This document shows, piece after piece, positions 12,744 through 62,026 of a DNA stretch of 64,000 bases. This stretch comes from an uncultured Thalassospiraceae bacterium. Its GTDB lineage: Bacteria > Pseudomonadota > Alphaproteobacteria > Rhodospirillales > Magnetovibrionaceae. Position numbers and translations under genes: made by a program. Within the stretch, counting starts at the first letter, position 1, and every line of letters starts with the position of its first letter. The notes under the pieces are model-generated. The model saw nothing but the letters and a program-made list of their open reading frames with translations. It ran no database searches and was not told the DNA's origin. The DNA lies in the NCBI GenBank assembly GCA_965602455.1, contig CBFCYL010000006.1, positions 1,385 through 65,384 of the forward strand, in the 5' to 3' direction.

Positions 12744-13319
12744 TTAGGGGCTTTTGCGGCCCTTAACGGCACGGCCCAGCGATTGCAGGGCGGCACGGAT
12801 TTCCGGGTCATCCACATTGCACAGCGAATCGGCCAGCGCGCTTTCCTCGTTGGGGGTTAGCTGGTGCGGTTTTACGTCCGGTTCCGGCGTCGCCCCCTTA
12901 ACCGGCCCCTGCACCATGCGCAGGGCGCGGACGGCCTTGTAGCCAAAGTGCTGGTTGATGCGTTCCACAATCAGGGGTTCCAGATGCTGGATTTCCGTGG
13001 CCAGCCCGCCCGAGACAATTCTCAGGTGCAGGACACCGCCGGTGGTGCCGTTTTTCGAAAAAATGATTTTTTCAGGCGCCGTCATCCGGGCCAGTTCGGG
13101 GCCGATGATTTCCGACCAGTTGTTGATGATGGCGCCATGGGCGAAACCACGCTTGCCCAGCATCGGCTTGGTTATGCGCTCAAGCATTCCCGACAGCAGC
13201 TTCGGGCCACCACCGGTGCGGGCGCGCTTTGGCCGCACGCCGTGGCCGTAGCGACCGTTCGGGGTCGCGTTTTTGGATTGCGTGTTCTTTTGGGTGTGCT
13301 TGGTGACCATGGCAACCAT
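12744..13319 (-). CDS. DUF721 (DciA-like) protein
   Basis: Only the C-terminal 191 codons of the 541-aa ORF look genuine (..WSEIIGPELARMTAPEKIIFSKNG..GVLHLRIVSGGLATEIQHLEPLIVERINQHFGYKAV). Divergent from mutY, as is common in Alphaproteobacteria. Confidence 0.7.
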   Translation of the reverse strand: MVAMVTKHTQKNTQSKNATPNGRYGHGVRPKRARTGGGPKLLSGMLERITKPMLGKRGFAHGAIINNWSEIIGPELARMTAPEKIIFSKNGTTGGVLHLRIVSGGLATEIQHLEPLIVERINQHFGYKAVRALRMVQGPVKGATPEPDVKPHQLTPNEESALADSLCNVDDPEIRAALQSLGRAVKGRKSP

Positions 13320-13325
13320 GGTAGG

Positions 13326-14537
13326 ATGGCGCCGATGTCTAAACAACAGGCCAAACAACAAAAGAGAAGCCGCCGCCGGGCGACCAGCCCCAAAGTCAAT
13401 CTGGGAGCCAGCCCGACGGCCCGCCTCATGTCGTGGTTTGATGCCACGCGGCGCGACCTGCCGTGGCGTAGCGCACCGGGCGAAAAAAGAGACCCTTACC
13501 GGGTGTGGCTTTCTGAAATCATGCTCCAGCAGACCCAGGTGACGACCGCGACACCGTATTTCGAGGCCTTTGTCGAGCGCTGGGCCGATGTGGCGGCATT
13601 GGCGGGCGCTGCCGATGACGACGTGTTCAGCGCATGGGCCGGGCTGGGTTATTACGCCCGGGCGCGAAATTTGATCAAATGTGCGCGCCATGTGGCGTTT
13701 GAGCTCGGCGGGCGTTTTCCTGAGACCGAAGCTGGGCTTTTGGAACTTCCCGGTGTCGGGGCTTATACGGCCCCTGCCATTGCCGCCATCGCCTTCAACC
13801 AGCCAACCGCCCCGGTGGATGGCAACATCGCGCGCGTGCTGGCCCGGCGTCTGACGCTGGAAACCCCGTTGCCGGGGCTGAAGGGGGAAATCCGACCCGA
13901 GGTTGAAAAGCTGTTGCCGGCCGGGCGCCCCGGTGACTTCGCCGAAGCCCTGATGGACCTGGGGGCCGGTGTGTGCAAACCGAAAAAGCCCGATTGCCCG
14001 CGCTGCCCGTGGACCGGCGATTGCCGGGCAGAGGCATCCGGCACGCCGGAACGGTGGCCCCGGCGCAAAGTGGCAAAGCCCAAACCGACACGCCGGGGCT
14101 GGGTTTTCTGGCTGGAGCGCGAGCCGGGCGATGGCGATAAAAACAGCGTTGAAGTCTTTATTGTGCGCCGCCCGCAAAAAGGGTTGCTGGGCGCCATGAT
14201 GGCCTTCCCCACCACCGACTGGGCGGAAGGTGCGCCAGACACCGACATCGCACTGGATGAAGCGGATGGCCTTTTTCAGGCCCGCAAAGTGGCCGAGAGC
14301 GCCTTTGCCAGTTTCGGTAACAACAACTGGCAGGCGCTCGACGGGCGGGTGCGCCACACCTTTACGCACTTCAGCCTTGAACTTGGTGTAGTCTGTGGCC
14401 GCATCGACGGTGGCGCAATACCTGCGGCCGGGGTGGACGGGGTCTGGTGCCCCGAGGCCGAACTGGGATCCCGCGCCCTGCCGTCGGTAATGGCCAAGGT
14501 TGCCCGGCTGGTTGGCGAGGGAAAAACCGGGGGTTAG
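13326..14537 (+). CDS. mutY: A/G-specific adenine DNA glycosylase MutY
   Basis: RRDLPWR..DPYRVWLSEIMLQQTQV, HhH-GPD LPGVGAYTA, and a 4Fe-4S loop C-x6-C-x2-C-x5-C (CKPKKPDCPRCPWTGDC). An alternative start at 13428 (MSWFD..) is plausible. Confidence 0.9.
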   Translation: MAPMSKQQAKQQKRSRRRATSPKVNLGASPTARLMSWFDATRRDLPWRSAPGEKRDPYRVWLSEIMLQQTQVTTATPYFEAFVERWADVAALAGAADDDVFSAWAGLGYYARARNLIKCARHVAFELGGRFPETEAGLLELPGVGAYTAPAIAAIAFNQPTAPVDGNIARVLARRLTLETPLPGLKGEIRPEVEKLLPAGRPGDFAEALMDLGAGVCKPKKPDCPRCPWTGDCRAEASGTPERWPRRKVAKPKPTRRGWVFWLEREPGDGDKNSVEVFIVRRPQKGLLGAMMAFPTTDWAEGAPDTDIALDEADGLFQARKVAESAFASFGNNNWQALDGRVRHTFTHFSLELGVVCGRIDGGAIPAAGVDGVWCPEAELGSRALPSVMAKVARLVGEGKTGG

Positions 14538-14619
14538 ACTTAAAAATTAGCGTTCGAAACATCGGCCCTGAAATCCTATATAGTGTTGAGGGCACGATAT
14601 TTGGTTGGAAAGATAAAAA

Positions 14620-16047
14620 ATGGCTGTGGGCGGCAACATTCTTCTGGTTGAGGATACGGTTTCCCTTGCGAAAACGTACCTTGCCTATCTCAAGGACGAT
14701 CCATACGAAGTCCAGCACGTGGAACTGGGCGCCGATGCGCTGGCGGTAATTCGCGAGCGGACGCCGGATGTTATCCTGCTTGACCTGAAGCTGCCGGACA
14801 TGGACGGCATCGATATCCTGAAGCACATTTCCGAAAATGGCATTCCCAGTGCGGTGGTGGTTGTTACCGCCAATGCATCGTTGAACGTTGCCATCGAGGC
14901 AATGCGCCTTGGCGCGCTGGATTTTCTGGTCAAACCGTTCAATGCCGAGCGCCTGCGCGTTACCATTAAGAATGTTCTGGAACGCCAGCACCTCACCAAG
15001 ATTGTTGAAACCTACCGCAACGACATTGACCGCCGTGAATTCGGCGGCTTTATCGGCGCTTCCATCGCCATGCAGGCGGCATATCGAATCATCGAAAGTG
15101 CCGCCAGTTCCAAGGCAACGGTTTTTATTACGGGTGAAAGCGGCACCGGCAAGGAGCTGTGCGCCGAGGCCGTCCACAACAACAGTCCGCGTGCAGGCGG
15201 CCCGTTTGTGGCCATTAACTGTGGCGCCATTCCCAAGGACCTGATGGAAAGCGAAATTTTCGGTCACGTTAAAGGCGCCTTTACCGGCGCCGTGGCCTCG
15301 CGCGAGGGCGCTGCCGCGCGCGCCAATGGCGGCACCTTGTTTCTTGATGAAATATGCGAAATGGACCTGAACCTGCAAACCAAATTGTTGCGGTTTATCC
15401 AGACCGGAACCTTCCAGCCCGTTGGCGGCACCAAGACCGAGGAAGTGGATATACGTTTTGTTTGCGCCACCAACAAAGACCCCATGGTTGAAGTTTCCGA
15501 GGGGCGCTTTCGCGAAGACCTTTTTTACCGCCTGCACGTTATCCCCATTGCGATGCCGCCGCTAAGGGGCCGTGAAAGCGATGCTGTCGACATTGCCGAG
15601 CATCTTCTTGAGTTGTATGCCACCGAGGAAGGGAAGGCGTTTAAGGGCTTTTCAGACGAGGTGCGCGCTATTTTTCAGGCCTATCCATGGCCGGGAAACG
15701 TTCGCCAGTTGCAAAATGTTATTCGCAACATTGTGGTGCTGAATGATGCCGAGGACGTGTCAGTCGAAATGTTACCGGCACCATTGGATGAATATGTTGG
15801 CAAGGTTACGCCGATTCACGCCGGGCGCGCTGAAACTTCCGTTATCGCGCCAACATCTGCCATGGTAAAACGCGAGGCCGATATTCGCCCCCTTGAGGAA
15901 ACGGAACGCGAAACCATCGAAACCGCCATCGAGGTTTGCGGTGGAAATGTTCCCAAGGCGGCGGCGTATCTGGGCATTTCGGCGTCAACCATTTACCGCA
16001 AGCGCCAGAGTTGGGAAGAAAAAACCGACCATGCTTCCGAGGCCTAG
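14620..16047 (+). CDS. luxO: Sigma54-dependent response regulator, LuxO-like
   Basis: Receiver domain (LLDLKLPDMDG). AAA+ domain with GESGTGKE, GAFTGA (GHVKGAFTGA), and LQTKLLRFIQTGTFQ. C-terminal HTH (AAAYLGISASTIYRKRQSW). Long stretches match Vibrio LuxO as I remember it. Confidence 0.8.
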   Translation: MAVGGNILLVEDTVSLAKTYLAYLKDDPYEVQHVELGADALAVIRERTPDVILLDLKLPDMDGIDILKHISENGIPSAVVVVTANASLNVAIEAMRLGALDFLVKPFNAERLRVTIKNVLERQHLTKIVETYRNDIDRREFGGFIGASIAMQAAYRIIESAASSKATVFITGESGTGKELCAEAVHNNSPRAGGPFVAINCGAIPKDLMESEIFGHVKGAFTGAVASREGAAARANGGTLFLDEICEMDLNLQTKLLRFIQTGTFQPVGGTKTEEVDIRFVCATNKDPMVEVSEGRFREDLFYRLHVIPIAMPPLRGRESDAVDIAEHLLELYATEEGKAFKGFSDEVRAIFQAYPWPGNVRQLQNVIRNIVVLNDAEDVSVEMLPAPLDEYVGKVTPIHAGRAETSVIAPTSAMVKREADIRPLEETERETIETAIEVCGGNVPKAAAYLGISASTIYRKRQSWEEKTDHASEA

Positions 16048-16048
16048 C

Positions 16049-16435
16049 TCAGGAAGCTGATACGACCAACTCAGCGGCCAGCGTTTCGGCTGCATCGACC
16101 GTGGCGGGCAGGTTGCGCACCAGCAATTCATAGCATTTGGCGATGGCTTCGTGGTCGGCCGTGTCGCAGGCTTGCTCAAGGGCCAGGGCAACTTCGGCGC
16201 CTTCGGGCGCGCCGTAGGTGCGGCAAAGCCCCTTAAGCGAGTGGGCGTGCAGGCGCATTGCAGCCGGGTCACCGTGGCTATTGACCAGGGCATCAAGAAG
16301 ACTCATCCGGTCGTTCACATCCAATTTGAATTGGCCGAAAAGCTCCATCACGTTTTCAGCGCCGACATCCGCGATCATTTGCTCAATAAGGGCTTTATCG
16401 GTCATATCCATCTCGCGCCTTGCGTTAATCGTCAT
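16049..16435 (-). CDS. Hpt (histidine phosphotransfer) protein, LuxU-like
   Basis: About 118-128 aa with HAHSLKG phosphohistidine motif and four-helix-bundle length. Possible starts at 16435, 16411 or 16405. The 16435 ATG overlaps the apt stop (TAATG). Confidence 0.7.
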   Translation of the reverse strand: MTINARREMDMTDKALIEQMIADVGAENVMELFGQFKLDVNDRMSLLDALVNSHGDPAAMRLHAHSLKGLCRTYGAPEGAEVALALEQACDTADHEAIAKCYELLVRNLPATVDAAETLAAELVVSAS

Positions 16436-16950
16436 TAATCATCGTAGGAAATCAACGCTTCGAAGGGGATGTCCAGGCGATCCTGCCCGTTCAGGAAAGT
16501 CAGCTCGATAATTGTCGCCGCGCCGGTTACGTTGCCGCCGACTTTTTTGCACAGGTTAATGGTCGCTTCCATGGTGCCGCCGGTAGCCAGCAGGTCATCC
16601 AGAATCACAACGCGCTGACCGGGTGCGATGGCATCATCTTGTATTTCGAGGATATCGGTGCCGTATTCAAGCGCATATTCGTATTGCACCGTTTTGCCGG
16701 GCAATTTGCCTTTTTTTCTGGCCATCACGAAACCGCAGCCCAGCTTAAGCGCCAACGGGGCGGCAACCAGAAAGCCGCGCGATTCAATGCCAACCAATAT
16801 GTCCGGCTGCCATGCACCGATCATGCGGGCCATGCGGCCCATGGCCACCTGCCAGGCGTCCGGGTGCGCAAGCAGGGTTGAGACGTCGTAAAACAAGATG
16901 CCCGGTTTTGGAAAATCCGGTATGGCGCGAATGTGGTCCTTAATATCCAT
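16435..16950 (-). CDS. apt: Adenine phosphoribosyltransferase
   Basis: [27 protein letters not shown] and PRPP loop [14 protein letters not shown] take the internal ATG at 16950. Confidence 0.92.
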
Positions 16951-17085
16951 ATTCTGGATAACCCCTATTTTGTTGATTTGCGGTGTTGGGATAATAGCGA
17001 ACGAGCGGCCAAAGAAACAAGGGCGCGCCGAAAAAAACGGCACGCCCCTGGTTTGGATACATCTACCGGGCCAATGGGCCGGGCC

Positions 17086-17460
17086 TTAGTGGCTTTTCAG
17101 ATATTCGATGACGGCGGCTCTTTCTTCGGCCTTTTTCAGCTTGAAGCTCATGGACGTTTTCTTGCCGAGGAACTTCTTGGGGTTGGCCAGCCAGCCATCC
17201 AGGCTGGTGTCGTCCCAAACGATGTCAGAACCGGCCAGGCCCTTGTATTTACTGAAGCCATCCACGGTTCCGGCCTGCTTGCCGACAATGCCAGCCAATG
17301 ACGGGCCGACCTTGTGCTTGCCCGCATCGGTGCTATGGCAGCTTTTGCAGCGTTTTTTAAACACCGCCTCGCCAGCCTCGTTTCCACTGGCCGAGGCATT
17401 AAGGGGAAGGGTGAAAAGGAACACCGCGGCAATGGCGGCGGAAAGGGCATGTTTGATCAT
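17086..17460 (-). CDS. Class I c-type cytochrome (c2/c550-like), paralogue 1
   Basis: Signal peptide, a single CKSCH haem motif, GPSLAG, and a distal Met in KKTSMSFKL. Confidence 0.88.
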   Translation of the reverse strand: MIKHALSAAIAAVFLFTLPLNASASGNEAGEAVFKKRCKSCHSTDAGKHKVGPSLAGIVGKQAGTVDGFSKYKGLAGSDIVWDDTSLDGWLANPKKFLGKKTSMSFKLKKAEERAAVIEYLKSH

Positions 17461-17595
17461 GGGCTCGGGGTCTCCATTGCTAAAAGGCATCAGCGGCTCG
17501 AGCGCGAGTATAGCATCACCGGGCGATGGGCACATGACCGGGGTCAAGCCTGCCCCTTAACCCAAAAAACCGGGGCCCTGCCTTGCAAATCCAAG

Positions 17596-17630
17596 CAAAA
17601 ACCCCCGCCTGGCGGCTGCCGACGGGGGTT
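17596..17630 (-). terminator. Rho-independent terminator of cytochrome c paralogue 2
   Basis: On the minus strand: CCCCCG-loop-CGGGGG followed by TTTTTG. Confidence 0.65.
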
Positions 17631-17656
17631 TGCGGGTCGTAAGCGAGGGGAGATTC

Positions 17657-18034
17657 TCAAAGGGTTTTGAGATACTCAATCACCTCTTCGCGTTCATCTT
17701 CCTTCTTCAGCTTGAAGGTCATGGGTGTGCTTTTGCCGATAAACTTCTTGGGATTGGCCAACCAGCCGTCGAGCTGGGCCTCATCCCAGATGATGTCGGA
17801 ATTTTTTAACCCCTTGTAATTGGTGTAGCCGTCGACGGTACCGGCGGTGCGCCCAAATACGCCAGCCAACGACGGGCCGGTCTTGTGCTTGCCGGCTTCG
17901 GTGGCGTGGCAGCTTTTGCAGCGTTTCTTGAAAACCTTCTCGCCCGCTTCGCTGGCCGATGCGGCGGCGGGAAGGGCAAACAGGAAAGCCGCGGCAAGGG
18001 CGACGGAAAGATGTTGGTTAAACTTATTGCTCAT
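17657..18034 (-). CDS. Class I c-type cytochrome, paralogue 2
   Basis: Signal peptide, CKSCH, GPSLAG and TPMTFKL. Highly similar to paralogue 1. Confidence 0.88.
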   Translation of the reverse strand: MSNKFNQHLSVALAAAFLFALPAAASASEAGEKVFKKRCKSCHATEAGKHKTGPSLAGVFGRTAGTVDGYTNYKGLKNSDIIWDEAQLDGWLANPKKFIGKSTPMTFKLKKEDEREEVIEYLKTL

Positions 18035-18186
18035 GAGGGGGGTCTCCGTTGCGGTTTTTGATTTTATACCAGATGGGTACCGGTCGGCGGCCCATCAAGT
18101 GCCGCGGAGTATAACGGTTGAACCTGAGCGCTACATGAACAAAATCGAATATATCGTTTCAATATATATTGCAAATAGTTAGGCAT

Positions 18187-18225
18187 GAAAAAACCCCGCC
18201 GGACTTGATGCCAACGGGGTTTTTT
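18187..18225. terminator. Bidirectional hairpin terminator
   Basis: AAAAAACCCCG-loop-CGGGGTTTTTT immediately downstream of the 18245 gene. Confidence 0.65.
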
Positions 18226-18244
18226 ATGGTTTGCGAAAAGCGGG

Positions 18245-18622
18245 TCAGCCGTTCTTTTTGAGGTACTCGATGATTTCCTCGCGGTCTTCCGCCTTCTTGA
18301 TTTTGACGCTCATGGCCGTTTTTTTGTCGATCCCCTTGGATTTCAGAAAATCCTTCTGGTTGGTGATCCAGGCATCAAGCGTGGCTTCGTCCCAGGTGAA
18401 GCTGGCGCCCTTGAGGGCCTTGAATTTCTTGAAACCGGTGGAGCCTGCCTTGCGACCAACCACGCCCTTGAGCGCGGGGCCAATGGCGTCTTTATCCATC
18501 TTGTGGCAGACGCCACATTTTTTCTTGAAAAGTTTGCCGCCATCAGCGTCGGCGCTTGCCATGCCGGAAGTGGTGGCAATGGCCATGGCGAGCCCAAAGG
18601 CTACGAAATGTTTGGTTTTCAT
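18245..18622 (-). CDS. Class I c-type cytochrome, paralogue 3 (more divergent)
   Basis: Signal peptide, CGVCH, GPALKG and TAMSVKI. I take the internal ATG at 18622. Confidence 0.85.
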   Translation of the reverse strand: MKTKHFVAFGLAMAIATTSGMASADADGGKLFKKKCGVCHKMDKDAIGPALKGVVGRKAGSTGFKKFKALKGASFTWDEATLDAWITNQKDFLKSKGIDKKTAMSVKIKKAEDREEIIEYLKKNG

Positions 18623-18887
18623 GATTTTGGTATCTCCAACTGGTTTCGCAAAGTGGTTGCTTGTGCTCCCCCCTAAAAAGAGCGTCCGCTTTTCTAGCCC
18701 ACAGCAGGCCACATAGCAATGTACACAACATAAGTTCGGCGGGGGCAGGCTGTTGCAATCTTGAAATAGTACCGCGTAATCAGGGCCAAAAAGCGGCAAA
18801 ACCCCTAAAAAAGCCTGAAAAACGCATAGAATTGGCAAAAAGCAGCCGGTTGCGCTTTTTGCTGAATTTTATTTGGGCCTAAAGGGC

Positions 18888-59018: not shown

Positions 59019-60107
59019 ATGGCTCTACACCCTTCAAAATCGGCTTTTGCCCCCTATGCCTTGCTGGTGCTGGCGCTTTTTCTGGCGCCGGGCAACATCC
59101 TTAATGGCGGCGCTTATGGCGCCCCTGTGGGGCTGGCGGTGGGCGCTGTGGCCACGGTCGAGGGCGAGACCTTTGGCCGCGATGTTCGCAATGGTGTGCT
59201 CAGTGTGGCCTACGATAAGACGACCGGCGACAAGGTCGGCGCCGGCGAGGTGCTGGCAACCGGTTATAACTCCGCCATGACGGTTCGCCTGCTTGACGAC
59301 ACCATCCTGACCCTCGGTGAAAACGCTGAGCTGGCCGTGGACGAACTGGTTTTTGACCCCGCATCCGGCGGCAAGAACGACCGGGTGGTGCTCAATCTGG
59401 CGGCCGGGGCCTACTATTTTATTTCCGGTAAGGTGGCGAAAGAACGCGTTACCCTGCTGACCCCAACCGCGACCATTGGTATTCGTGGCACCGAACTGGC
59501 CATCCGTGTGGAAAGCGGCGGCGCGACCTCGGTCAGCGTGGTCAAGGGTGCCGCCTTCATGCGCCCACGCCGTGAAAGGGGCCGCGACAGTGGAAATGAC
59601 CAACCTTCAGGCCCAAGAGGCGAAATCCAGATTGATGTCGGCTCGACCGGCAGCATTGATTCCGGGGGCCGCCTTTCCAAGCCGTTCGGCGGCATTGACC
59701 TGACGGGCGATGACGCGGTCGACCGCAATATCCCCGGTGTTGCCGACTGGCACGATGAACCCGATGAAGTGGATGATGATGACCCGACGGTCGTGGCCGA
59801 GGCCGCCAATGATGATGACCGGGATGGAAAAGACGAAGACGAGCAATCCGACGAACTTGCGCAGCGAAATGATGATGGTGAAAACGCCAGCGAAGAATCC
59901 GACCGCGGCGATGACGCTGCCGACAGCGATGATGGCAATGACAGCGATGATAGCGACGACAGCGACGACAGTGGTGACGATTCAGACGGTGATGACGGTG
60001 ATGACGGTGATGATGGCGATGACGGCGATGACGGCGGTGACGATTCAGATGACGATAACGATAACGACCGCGGGGAGCGTTCATCCAGCCGCGATAAAGA
60101 CGACTGA
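59019..60107 (+). CDS. Secreted FecR-domain protein with an extremely acidic Asp/Gly/Ser-rich C-terminal tail
   Basis: Signal peptide, FecR-like beta-sandwich region (..LNLAAGAYYFISGK..ATIGIRGTELAI..). The last roughly 115 residues are dominated by D, with G, S, E and N (DSDDSDDSDDSGDDSDGDDGDDGDDGDDGDDGGDD). Confidence 0.65.
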   Translation: MALHPSKSAFAPYALLVLALFLAPGNILNGGAYGAPVGLAVGAVATVEGETFGRDVRNGVLSVAYDKTTGDKVGAGEVLATGYNSAMTVRLLDDTILTLGENAELAVDELVFDPASGGKNDRVVLNLAAGAYYFISGKVAKERVTLLTPTATIGIRGTELAIRVESGGATSVSVVKGAAFMRPRRERGRDSGNDQPSGPRGEIQIDVGSTGSIDSGGRLSKPFGGIDLTGDDAVDRNIPGVADWHDEPDEVDDDDPTVVAEAANDDDRDGKDEDEQSDELAQRNDDGENASEESDRGDDAADSDDGNDSDDSDDSDDSGDDSDGDDGDDGDDGDDGDDGGDDSDDDNDNDRGERSSSRDKDD

Positions 60108-60148
60108 GTTCCGCCGGGGGGCCGGTTTATGAACCGGTAGCAGGGCGC

Positions 60149-60361
60149 CTATATCCGTTTGCTGAGTTCATCAAATGCGGTGATGACGAACAGGGAAAAT
60201 GACAGCACCCAAAAACTTCTCATGACAAGCCATGCAATAAGGTGATCGTTCGCCAGCCCTGAGGTTTGATGCGGCGCTTGCGCCTGATGCAAGGCGTCAT
60301 CATCGGCGCGGGTGCTGATGATGGGATTGGGATTGATGTCGTGCTCGAAGGTCACAATCAT
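60149..60361 (-). CDS. Hypothetical 70-aa protein with C-terminal TM helix
   Basis: ORF with an AGGGAG-like RBS 24 nt after the upstream ORF. No family recognised. Confidence 0.35.
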   Translation of the reverse strand: MIVTFEHDINPNPIISTRADDDALHQAQAPHQTSGLANDHLIAWLVMRSFWVLSFSLFVITAFDELSKRI

Positions 60362-60385
60362 GGTCTCGGCTCCCTGCTGGCATCG

Positions 60386-60640
60386 TTAATTGGTGGTTGA
60401 TTCGCCAAACGCTGAAATAATCCGGTATGAACGCAAGGCCTGCTCATCGGAAATGCCGGTTTCGCGGGCAGCAAAGGCGATAAGTTGTTCATCAGGGGTG
60501 GCCGGTGCCGCAATAAGGTCGGCGGCATCCAGCATTTCGAGCAAGGCCTCGGAGGAAGAAAGCAGATCACCCAGGGAGGATACCCGGGGGGATTGGGCAG
60601 TTAAGGCGATGGCAACTGTGGGGGGCTTTTTGCTTGCCAT
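60386..60640 (-). CDS. Hypothetical 84-aa acidic protein
   Basis: Strong GGAGGAG RBS 3 nt before the ATG and C-ending codon bias consistent with coding. Sits about 30 nt downstream of the predicted sigma54 start site. No family recognised. Confidence 0.45.
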   Translation of the reverse strand: MASKKPPTVAIALTAQSPRVSSLGDLLSSSEALLEMLDAADLIAAPATPDEQLIAFAARETGISDEQALRSYRIISAFGESTTN

Positions 60641-60681
60641 CGTCTCCTCCGCTGGTGTGATCCGCTATCATCCCCTTATTC

Positions 60682-60696
60682 GCAAAGGCCGTGCCA
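60682..60696 (-). promoter_or_regulatory. Sigma54 (-24/-12) promoter
   Basis: The minus strand reads TGGCACGGCCTTTGC, an essentially perfect match to TGGCACG-N4-TTGC. The -12 GC lies about 42 nt upstream of the 60640 ATG. Confidence 0.7.
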
Positions 60697-60771
60697 GTCC
60701 TTGCCAATCGACCAACCTGATGCAGAAAAAAACACAACACATTGAAATTAATAATAAAAAATCACGACGGA

Positions 60772-60788
60772 GCAAAAGCCGCTTTTGC
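60772..60788. promoter_or_regulatory. 17-bp perfect palindrome GCAAAAGCCGCTTTTGC (candidate enhancer/UAS)
   Basis: Centre lies about 84 bp upstream of the -24 element. An A/T-rich tract (60722-60766) separates the two. Confidence 0.4.
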
Positions 60789-60817
60789 CAATAGGACGTT
60801 TGTGCCGCCCGGCGGCG

Positions 60818-60830
60818 TTGCATTTTGCAT
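60818..60830. promoter_or_regulatory. TTGCATTTTGCAT, close to the LuxO-box consensus TTGCA-W3-TGCAA (candidate UAS)
   Basis: 12/13 match to the consensus as I recall it. Centre lies about 128 bp upstream of the -24 element. Confidence 0.4.
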
Positions 60831-60958
60831 TTTTTCGCAACCCGCCCGCTGAAATGCGAATCCCGCCTTTTGCGTCATGGCGGCCACCCCGCACGCCCCG
60901 GTGTGCACGCCTGCTATCGCATTTGTTATCTGGCCGATGAACCTGATAGGGTGCGCCT

Positions 60959-62026
60959 ATGCCAACGGGGGTTTACAAACTTATCTGGCCTTGGGTTCGC
61001 CTGCTGGACGCGGAAAGCGCCCATGGGCTTGCCATCAGGGCCCTTAAGCTGGGGCTGGTGCCGGTGCCGGACGCGGTCGTTCATCCGGAACTGGCGCAAT
61101 CGCTTTGGGGGCTGGATTTCCCGAGCCCCGTGGGCCTTGCCGCCGGGTTCGATAAAAACGCCGAAGTGTTTACCCCCATGCTGGCTCAGGGTTTTGGTTT
61201 CGTCGAGGTGGGCTCCGTTACCCCGCGCCCCCAGGCCGGTAATCCGAAACCACGCCTGTTCCGCCTTGAAGACGAACGCGCCGTCATCAACCGCATGGGC
61301 TTTAACAACCAGGGTTTTGATGCGGTTGCCAAACGAATGGAAAGCCGCGACCGAGCCCGGGGCATTGTCGGCGTCAACCTGGGCAAGAACAAGGATACCA
61401 CCGACGCCGCCCATGACTATGAACTGGGTGCTGCGCGCTTTGCCGCCTTGGCTGATTTTCTGGTGATTAATGTGTCGTCGCCAAACACACCCGGTTTGCG
61501 CGCCCTGCAAGGCCCGGAACCATTGCGCGAGCTGCTGACACGCACCATCGCTGCGCGCGACGAAGTGGTATCTGCAAACAACCGCCCGGCGCTGTTGTTA
61601 AAAATTGCCCCCGACCTGACGGACGCCGACAAGACCGACATTTCCCATGTCGCGCTGGAGGTTGGCATTGATGGCCTGATTGTTTCAAACACCACCATCG
61701 AACGCCCCGAAGGCTCCGCCAACCCGCGAATGAAGGAAGGGGGAGGCCTGAGCGGCAGGCCGTTGCTTGAAATGTCAACGCAGGCGCTTTCGGAAATGTA
61801 TCTGGCGACGGAAGGGAAAATCCCCATTATTGGCGTTGGCGGCGTCGAAGACGGCCAGAGCGCCTATAACAAGATTCTCGCCGGGGCTTCGCTGGTTGAG
61901 CTTTACACCGCCATGATTTTTGAAGGCCCGGATGTCGCCCAGACCATCAAAAGCGAAATGGTCGCGTGCATGAAGGCGGACGGCTTCTCAACCATTGGTG
62001 AAGCCGTGGGCGCCATTTTCCGCTAA
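60959..62026 (+). CDS. pyrD: Dihydroorotate dehydrogenase (quinone), class 2
   Basis: LLDAESAH N-terminal helix, GLAAGFDKN, EVGSVTP.PQ.GNPKPR.FRL, NVSSPNTPGLR. Confidence 0.93.
   Translation: MPTGVYKLIWPWVRLLDAESAHGLAIRALKLGLVPVPDAVVHPELAQSLWGLDFPSPVGLAAGFDKNAEVFTPMLAQGFGFVEVGSVTPRPQAGNPKPRLFRLEDERAVINRMGFNNQGFDAVAKRMESRDRARGIVGVNLGKNKDTTDAAHDYELGAARFAALADFLVINVSSPNTPGLRALQGPEPLRELLTRTIAARDEVVSANNRPALLLKIAPDLTDADKTDISHVALEVGIDGLIVSNTTIERPEGSANPRMKEGGGLSGRPLLEMSTQALSEMYLATEGKIPIIGVGGVEDGQSAYNKILAGASLVELYTAMIFEGPDVAQTIKSEMVACMKADGFSTIGEAVGAIFR

Follow-up and report, generated by a model that had tools for sequence, protein, structure and literature searches.

A LuxO-type sigma-54 promoter that probably controls a two-gene small-protein operon divergent from pyrD in an uncultured Rhodospirillales-like alphaproteobacterium

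The 64,000-nucleotide stretch of contig CBFCYL010000006.1 analyzed here (assembly GCA_965602455.1 of an uncultured Thalassospiraceae bacterium, positions 1,385 to 65,384; hereafter the window) carries on its minus strand a two-gene operon encoding small proteins of 84 and 70 amino acids (p84 and p70), which is probably controlled by an enhancer-dependent sigma-54 promoter of the LuxO type. The operon is flanked by the divergent gene pyrD and a convergent gene for a FecR-domain protein (59019-60107), and the same window encodes a LuxO-like sigma-54 activator and its phosphotransfer (Hpt) partner (Table 1). A first-pass annotation of this DNA had proposed that a near-consensus -24/-12 element with a LuxO-type enhancer drives two tiny proteins. 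Comparison with homologous loci supports this core reading, as the -24/-12 element, the boxes, and the small open reading frames (ORFs) are all retained in relatives, a nearby palindrome being the exception.

The promoter element, TGGCACGGCCTTTGC, can be read directly from the sequence as an exact TGGCAC-N5-TTGC, and it is the single copy of this pattern in the window. The GG and GC doublets of a sigma-54 promoter stand at canonical spacing in the window and at all homologous loci. The centre of the TTGCATTTTGCAT box is located 128 bp upstream of the TGG in the -24 element, in agreement with the approximate distance given in the first-pass annotation; the box has the 12/13 match to the LuxO box described there and is one base off the LuxO site of Vibrio cholerae qrr1, ttgcaaaatgcaa, identified by chromatin immunoprecipitation sequencing (ChIP-seq; PMC10328515). 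A TTGCG half-site followed by an A-run adjoins the box and possibly forms with it a second, overlapping, degenerate box. The A/T-rich tract noted earlier upstream of the promoter is present between the palindrome and the promoter and harbors a putative IHF site, TTTCAATGTGTTG, which matches the IHF consensus, WATCAANNNNTTR, at 12 of 13 positions. IHF-like sites occur at the matching position of the box-to-promoter interval in the homologous loci L084, L088, and L089.

No single motif is significant in the window alone, and the evidence comes from related loci and their comparison with the window. The exact -24/-12 pattern was seen once in the window against 0.42 expected, with at least one match in 35 of 100 shuffles, and LuxO boxes with at most one mismatch were seen twice against 5.5 expected. 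No promoter-like site in the window other than TGGCACGGCCTTTGC has a LuxO-type box 60-260 bp upstream.

At the homologous loci, the exact TGGCAC-N5-TTGC precedes every p84-family member for which upstream DNA is available, including eight long-form loci (the window, L083, L084, L085, L088, L089, L091, and L110) and four short-form loci (L010, L124, L170, and the doubtful L126). The last base of the element is 41-51 nt from the ATG, with the exception of L088 (80 nt). Boxes were surveyed in six long-form loci (the window included), namely those recovered by protein similarity for which 150 nt or more of upstream sequence is available, and all six have one or two boxes with at most one mismatch to TTGCA-W3-TGCAA, located 124-204 bp upstream of the TGG. 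L110, which was found by its DNA pattern, likewise has a LuxO-type box. Dinucleotide-preserving shuffles of the surveyed loci gave p values of 0.007-0.03 for the individual loci, which multiply to 3e-12. The boxes are tandem and overlapping in L089 and L091, while L085 has two separate boxes. The two boxes of L091, TTGCAATTTGCAA and TTGCAAAATGCAA, are identical to the V. cholerae LuxO ChIP-seq sites of qrr2/qrr4 and qrr1, respectively, and a perfect TTGCAATTTGCAA is also present at the short-form locus L010 (the V. cholerae sites are ttgcaaaatgcaa for qrr1, ttgcaatttgcaa for qrr2/qrr4, and ttgcattttgcaa for qrr3; PMC10328515). Across the family loci, the box-to-promoter distance is 71-204 bp, consistent with the distance of an enhancer (~70-200 bp). 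A blastn-short comparison among the long-form upstream regions identified no similarity other than the boxes, which form a phylogenetic footprint in otherwise diverged intergenic DNA, and the retention of the boxes across these loci supports the assignment of a LuxO-type enhancer to the promoter. Taken with its conservation, the combination of motifs is far beyond chance. The motifs are also unchanged in two near-identical contigs (L001 and L002, 98.8-99.2% identity), which are too close to the window to be informative.

The first gene of the operon encodes p84, a member of a previously unnamed small-protein family. Word-indexed homology searches with p84 and p70 returned self-matches only, and relatives were recovered by a full HMMER scan of 1.84 billion representative sequences, which identified six proteins of 80-96 aa (E = 3e-15 to 7e-4); a seventh further long-form relative is encoded in the metagenome locus L110. 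Short forms of 62-71 aa are found at the same genomic position in L010, L124, and L170 (per-sequence E = 8e-7 to 1e-5 with the long-form hidden Markov model), and a fourth short form, in L126, is doubtful (per-sequence E = 0.03 with the same model). A profile built from four family sequences gave no match on metagenome contigs, and neither p84 nor p70 was found by tblastn in the pyrD neighborhoods of 80 GTDB genomes. The long-form protein alignment contains 14 invariant residues, and the conserved family motifs are MAxxKPPTxAI at the N-terminus, GDPLSS, and, as the core of the C-terminal part, LAPxxP...AA...I..QAL..Y. Insertions and deletions are in frame, and aligned codons differ at positions 1, 2, and 3 in 45, 36, and 58% of pairs, respectively, as is expected of coding DNA under selection. 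The strong GGAGGAG of the 84-aa ORF and the 70-aa ORF with a C-terminal hydrophobic helix behind it were both located as first annotated, and the leader alignment places an AGGAG-type Shine-Dalgarno sequence at the equivalent position in the p84 homologues.

No member of the p84 family matches Pfam or NCBIfam, and no named family was obtained for p84 or p70 by Pfam, NCBIfam, PDB sequence, or fold match. The AlphaFold2 model of p84, built from a 7-sequence alignment, has a disordered N-terminal segment of 25 residues followed by three helices (mean predicted local distance difference test score, 66.6). A Foldseek search with this model found nothing significant; the best match (E = 0.43) was to homeodomain/POU-like three-helix folds and is at most a hint, and p84 is not claimed to be a helix-turn-helix (HTH) protein on the basis of non-significant fold matches. 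PDB profile matches of p84 to designer PPR repeat proteins were judged to be spurious, as they contain no valid stretch.

The hydrophobic segment of p70 reaches a Kyte-Doolittle 19-residue maximum of 1.92 at residues 42-60. L083, L088, L092, and L110 also have a second small ORF behind the p84 homologue, with a hydrophobic C-terminal segment that is preceded by a (M/F)(R/K)(S/G)F-type motif. The p70-type second ORF is not present at the short-form loci. In the window, p84 and p70 are in one reading frame, separated by TAA and 24 nt. An interpretation of the pair as one gene split by the TAA, or joined by readthrough, was rejected because both spacing and frame differ in the homologues.

The activator encoded in the window was also recognized as LuxO-like in the first-pass annotation, and both profile and structure databases agree. 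Its best NCBIfam model is LuxO_transreg_Vib with 656.6 bits against 392 for NtrC, a score below the curated cut-off of 800 bits for LuxO equivalogs, and the protein is therefore named LuxO-like rather than an equivalog of Vibrio LuxO. The best PDB match is LuxO of Photobacterium angustum (5EP0, 490 bits vs. 317 for the next), and the GAFTGA motif is intact. In V. cholerae LuxO, alanine substitution of 11 HTH residues (G409, N410, I411, L418, V420, S423, I425, Y426, R427, K428, and L429) abolishes binding to qrr4 (PMC11407668). The V. cholerae HTH residues 409-430 were reconstructed from Table 2 of that study and compared with GNVPKAAAYLGISASTIYRKRQ of the window; eight of the 11 essential residues are identical, two are conservatively replaced (I to V and V to I), and one is changed (L to R). 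The recognition-helix stretch STIYRK, which includes the essential S, I, Y, R, and K, is kept.

The LuxU-like Hpt gene is convergent with the activator gene, and this adjacency is kept in relatives (L213-L217). LuxO-Hpt fusions also occur in the clade (P0093, P0115, and P0127; ~600 aa, ~62-64% identity, C-terminal Hpt domain). Homologues of the activator with 60-73% identity are common in Rhodospirillales metagenome-assembled genomes, Magnetovibrio, and Varunaivibrio, some of them labelled LuxO by the Joint Genome Institute. Two orthologues (70-72% identity) share with the window a syntenic block consisting of genes for SMC, a DsbA-like protein, DciA, the LuxO-like protein, Hpt, apt, cytochromes c, and DctP. 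At the orthologue loci, a perfect TTGCAAAATGCAA is located 62-76 bp upstream of the luxO-like start, beside a TTGACA (L213, 8282-8294; L214, 9925-9937), and is likely an autoregulation site.

Metagenome contigs were also scanned with the exact pattern TGCAWWWTGCA-N{110,140}-CTGGCAC-N5-TTGC, which gave at least 80 loci of heterogeneous content. L110 repeats the neighborhood of the window (nadK, pyrD, p84, p70, a FecR-like gene, and hisS), and L124, L126, and L170 each contain a short-form ORF and have pyrD on the opposite side of the promoter, in divergent orientation. Among the matches listed, a LuxO homologue (47-57% identity) is found beside the box and promoter in 4 of 80 loci (L121, L127, L143, and L145). 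The promoter drives an Hpt-LuxO operon in L121, whereas in L127 luxO is the divergent gene and the promoter drives a gene for a 101-aa membrane protein. The target of the LuxO-linked box and promoter in L143 and L145 is a 553-aa nucleotidyltransferase-like gene.

Table 1. Features of the small-protein operon, its upstream region, and the candidate regulators; positions refer to the window
Feature	Position	Strand	Sequence	Remarks
p70, 70-aa ORF	60149-60361	minus		second gene of operon; C-terminal hydrophobic helix
p84, 84-aa ORF	60386-60640	minus		founding member of an uncharacterised small-protein family
Shine-Dalgarno of 84-aa gene	60650-60644	minus	GGAGGAG	3 nt before ATG at 60640
Purine-rich leader motif	60657-60675	minus	GGGGATGATAGCGGATCAC	predicted 5' end of transcript; family consensus ~GGGTGAAAGCGGATC
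Sigma-54 -24/-12 element	60696-60682	minus	TGGCACGGCCTTTGC	read directly; exact TGGCAC-N5-TTGC
IHF-like site	60747-60735	minus	TTTCAATGTGTTG	inside A/T-rich tract between LuxO-type box and promoter
17-bp perfect palindrome	60772-60788	either	GCAAAAGCCGCTTTTGC	probably outside conserved unit
LuxO-type box	60818-60830		ATGCAAAATGCAA on promoter strand, TTGCATTTTGCAT on plus strand	12/13 to TTGCA-W3-TGCAA
TTGCG half-site and A-run	60831-60840	minus	TTGCGAAAAA	adjoins box; together TTGCGAAAAAATGCAAAATGCAA
pyrD (dihydroorotate dehydrogenase)	60959-62026	plus		PF01180; divergent neighbour sharing intergenic region
LuxO-like sigma-54 activator	14620-16047	plus		REC, AAA+ with GHVKGAFTGA, lid, HTH_8 (Pfam)
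Hpt phosphotransfer protein (LuxU-like)	16049-16435	minus		PF01627, E = 3e-10; convergent with activator gene

The 17-bp perfect palindrome that the first-pass annotation placed upstream of the promoter is present, although its suggested role as an enhancer was not upheld. It was not found at the homologous loci, where a TTTTGCA-like half-site alone lies near that position, and it is not unusual in the window, which contains eight perfect inverted repeats with 8-bp arms against ~4 expected. As an enhancer or a terminator the palindrome was rejected, as it is neither conserved nor unusual and has no T-run.

Several features of the genes around the regulators and the operon were also observed. 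In the region 16435-18838, apt and the Hpt gene share a single base at the end of apt and make up an apt-hpt operon, and three consecutive small cytochrome c genes follow beside them on the same strand, an arrangement kept in L213-L217. Upstream of the activator gene, two long ORFs overlap on opposite strands (12744-14537), and the similarity of the plus-strand one to MutY begins at residue 186; in relatives DciA is encoded upstream of luxO, so the gene boundaries assigned here are tentative. The FecR-domain protein has an extremely Asp-rich C-terminal tail of ~120 residues, and in contig L001 its gene has an in-frame insertion of 9 nt together with clustered amino-acid replacements.

Based on these features, a phosphorelay ending in the Hpt protein would phosphorylate the LuxO-like activator, which would then bind the TTGCA-W3-TGCAA box ~128 bp upstream of the -24 element. 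The A/T-rich tract with its IHF-like site may bend the DNA between the box and the promoter, allowing the AAA+ domain of the activator to remodel sigma-54 RNA polymerase at TGGCACGGCCTTTGC. The mRNA, predicted to start near 60670, would carry a short conserved leader followed by a strong ribosome-binding site. The predicted output of the relay is p84 (soluble, three-helix) and p70 (membrane-anchored) rather than a Qrr-type RNA, with phosphorylation borne by Hpt as the presumed switch, IHF as a possible assistant, and activation as the presumed direction of control. Our best guess for p84 and p70 is a role as small regulatory or adaptor proteins, possibly tied to pyrD.

The main competing explanation, which we consider unlikely, accepts the promoter and operon as real and assigns them to another bacterial enhancer-binding protein (bEBP), encoded elsewhere and recognizing a similar TGCA-W3-TGCA site. 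A TGCA-W3-TGCA box and sigma-54 promoter also precede NifX/NifB-like MKIAIPVW genes (~134-144 aa) in L096, L144, L148, L150, L160, and L168; the adjacent bEBP is only ~36-38% identical to the LuxO-like protein in L096, L144, and L168, and the contigs of L148, L150, and L160 show none. These NifX-like loci look like a different regulon with a similar core motif. The core stands before sigma-54 promoters linked to unrelated bEBPs of ~37% identity in other phyla as well and is thus not unique to LuxO, which weighs against control by the LuxO-like protein. Other points weigh against the LuxO-type reading as a whole. The box of the window is single and has one mismatch, and its flanks read CTGCA...TGCAG at the short-form loci L124 and L170. 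The promoter and the activator gene are 45 kb apart, only 64 kb of the genome are covered, and the window contains no rpoN gene. With the LuxO model, the activator stays below the equivalog cut-off, and the p84 model is of modest confidence with no significant structural match. Moreover, the position in the window that aligns with the autoregulatory site of the orthologues (~14553-14565) has decayed to TTCGAAACATCGG, and no LuxO box with two or fewer mismatches was found near the luxO-like gene of the window. On the other hand, the long-form loci have complete TTGCA..TGCAA 13-mers with the same letters as LuxO sites in Vibrio, and the HTH of the LuxO-like protein keeps the essential recognition residues. 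The orthologous luxO-like genes have a perfect box at their own promoter, and LuxO homologues are enriched beside such promoters among the metagenome matches listed. These observations argue for the LuxO-like protein as the activator of the p84 promoter.

It is improbable that the functional product is mainly an RNA, acting by base-pairing or protein titration through its 5' leader, either as a Qrr analogue or as a dual-function mRNA, with the ORFs being secondary. Such an RNA would be in line with the targets of LuxO in Vibrio, which are small RNAs (sRNAs), and with the purine-rich leader motif, of which ~15 nt are conserved in the leader alignment of L083-L091 where the proteins are only 38-49% identical. 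The leader motif and the Shine-Dalgarno sequence provide two GGA-containing sites, and the motif could be a protein-binding or translation-control element. However, the ORF is conserved at the protein level, with in-frame indels, codon-position bias, and a conserved Shine-Dalgarno sequence, and RNAalifold identified neither conserved secondary structure nor covariation in the leader alignment. Rfam gave no match at the gathering threshold in the window and none at E ≤ 1 in 60050-60960, and there is no terminator close downstream of the leader. A Qrr sRNA (Rfam RF00378) was not found downstream of the promoter, where a conserved ORF is located instead. The first-pass remark that the region does not resemble Qrr sequences thus holds, and its alternative of an unrecognised RNA is disfavored by the protein-level conservation together with the lack of an Rfam match and of a conserved leader fold.

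The gene pyrD is the divergent neighbor at every family locus that retains that side (L010, L083-L091, L110, L124, L126, and L170), with PyrD identities down to 54%, while the opposite flank varies (FecR-like/hisS, class-IV aminotransferase, and others). This constant neighbor suggests a functional or regulatory coupling of the small proteins to dihydroorotate dehydrogenase. It is, however, very improbable that the boxes chiefly regulate pyrD through a sigma-70 promoter, with the sigma-54 promoter as a co-resident under separate control: the constancy of pyrD against a variable flank and the position of the window box ~130 bp upstream of the pyrD ATG are compatible with it, as is the box beside the -35-like TTGACA of the luxO-like gene in relatives, but among 80 GTDB pyrD loci a divergent box and promoter are found in L010 alone, the one that also has a small ORF, indicating that the box tracks the small ORF and not pyrD, and a box-to-promoter distance of 71-204 bp fits the function of an enhancer. 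The box beside TTGACA in relatives has no sigma-54 promoter nearby, and the LuxO-like protein therefore probably also acts at sigma-70 promoters; regulation of pyrD and LuxO-type control of the small-protein operon are not mutually exclusive.

The LuxO-type control of the p84 operon may be part of a wider arrangement, which we put forward tentatively and with less confidence than the control itself. In a Rhodospirillales-like clade, the LuxO/Hpt relay may act not through Qrr but through a hitherto unrecognised family of proteins of 60-96 residues, always encoded divergently from pyrD, as its direct and dedicated output. These proteins would take the place that Qrr has in the regulation of Vibrio and might link the signal to pyrimidine synthesis or, via the co-transcribed p70, to a membrane partner. 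LuxO is among the best-studied bacterial signal integrators. Its direct targets in V. cholerae, as determined by ChIP-seq, are the four qrr sRNA genes and one weak extra site (PMC10328515). A search of the literature for LuxO in alphaproteobacteria and Rhodospirillales found no reported target, and the searchable literature contains none for LuxO-like proteins outside Vibrionaceae. The p84 operon provides a concrete, conserved, and testable candidate target of a LuxO-like protein in alphaproteobacteria, with a recognizable promoter, operator, activator, and phosphotransfer partner. If this assignment is true, it would also give the p84 family, an orphan family from uncultured and possibly marine bacteria, its first regulatory context.

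Among known systems, two-component systems also use small connectors or adaptors such as PmrD and IraP as outputs. Like them, p84 has <100 aa, and its synthesis from a dedicated promoter appears to be all that the response regulator directly brings about; p84 has no sequence or structural similarity to them, and any likeness in function is speculation only. SgrS/SgrT and RNAIII/delta-haemolysin resemble the p84 operon in having a short, signal-responsive transcript with a tiny protein and a conserved non-coding 5' segment. They differ in that the p84 operon shows no evidence of base-pairing and neither a conserved structure nor a short RNA bounded by a terminator, and its conservation is dominated by the protein. 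NtrC-type promoters with IHF-assisted looping, such as glnAp2, share the layout of a -24/-12 element preceded by an activator site, with an A/T-rich IHF-like bend between the two; their site, however, is TGCACC-N5-GGTGCA, and the activator of the window scores 656 bits with the LuxO model against 392 with NtrC.

The closest parallel is the LuxO/qrr system of Vibrio (qrr1-4 in V. cholerae and qrr1-5 in V. harveyi). It differs in its output, which is a Qrr sRNA of ~100 nt, whereas the operon described here encodes two small proteins and has no similarity to Qrr in sequence or Rfam. The gene order also differs, as Vibrio has a luxOU operon and a target linked to luxO, while in this Rhodospirillales-like alphaproteobacterium a convergent Hpt gene stands in an apt-hpt arrangement and the target is linked to pyrD. 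Both systems have a REC-AAA+-HTH activator with an Hpt partner, a 13-bp TTGCA-W3-TGCAA site with identical letters at some p84-family loci, and a TGGCAC-N5-TTGC promoter with the enhancer roughly 100-200 bp upstream. In both, a box is also found at the gene of the regulator itself, here in relatives of the window, recalling the qrr1/luxO site. If the assignment holds, evolution would have replaced the output node of the relay and retained the activator together with its DNA site and the type of promoter.

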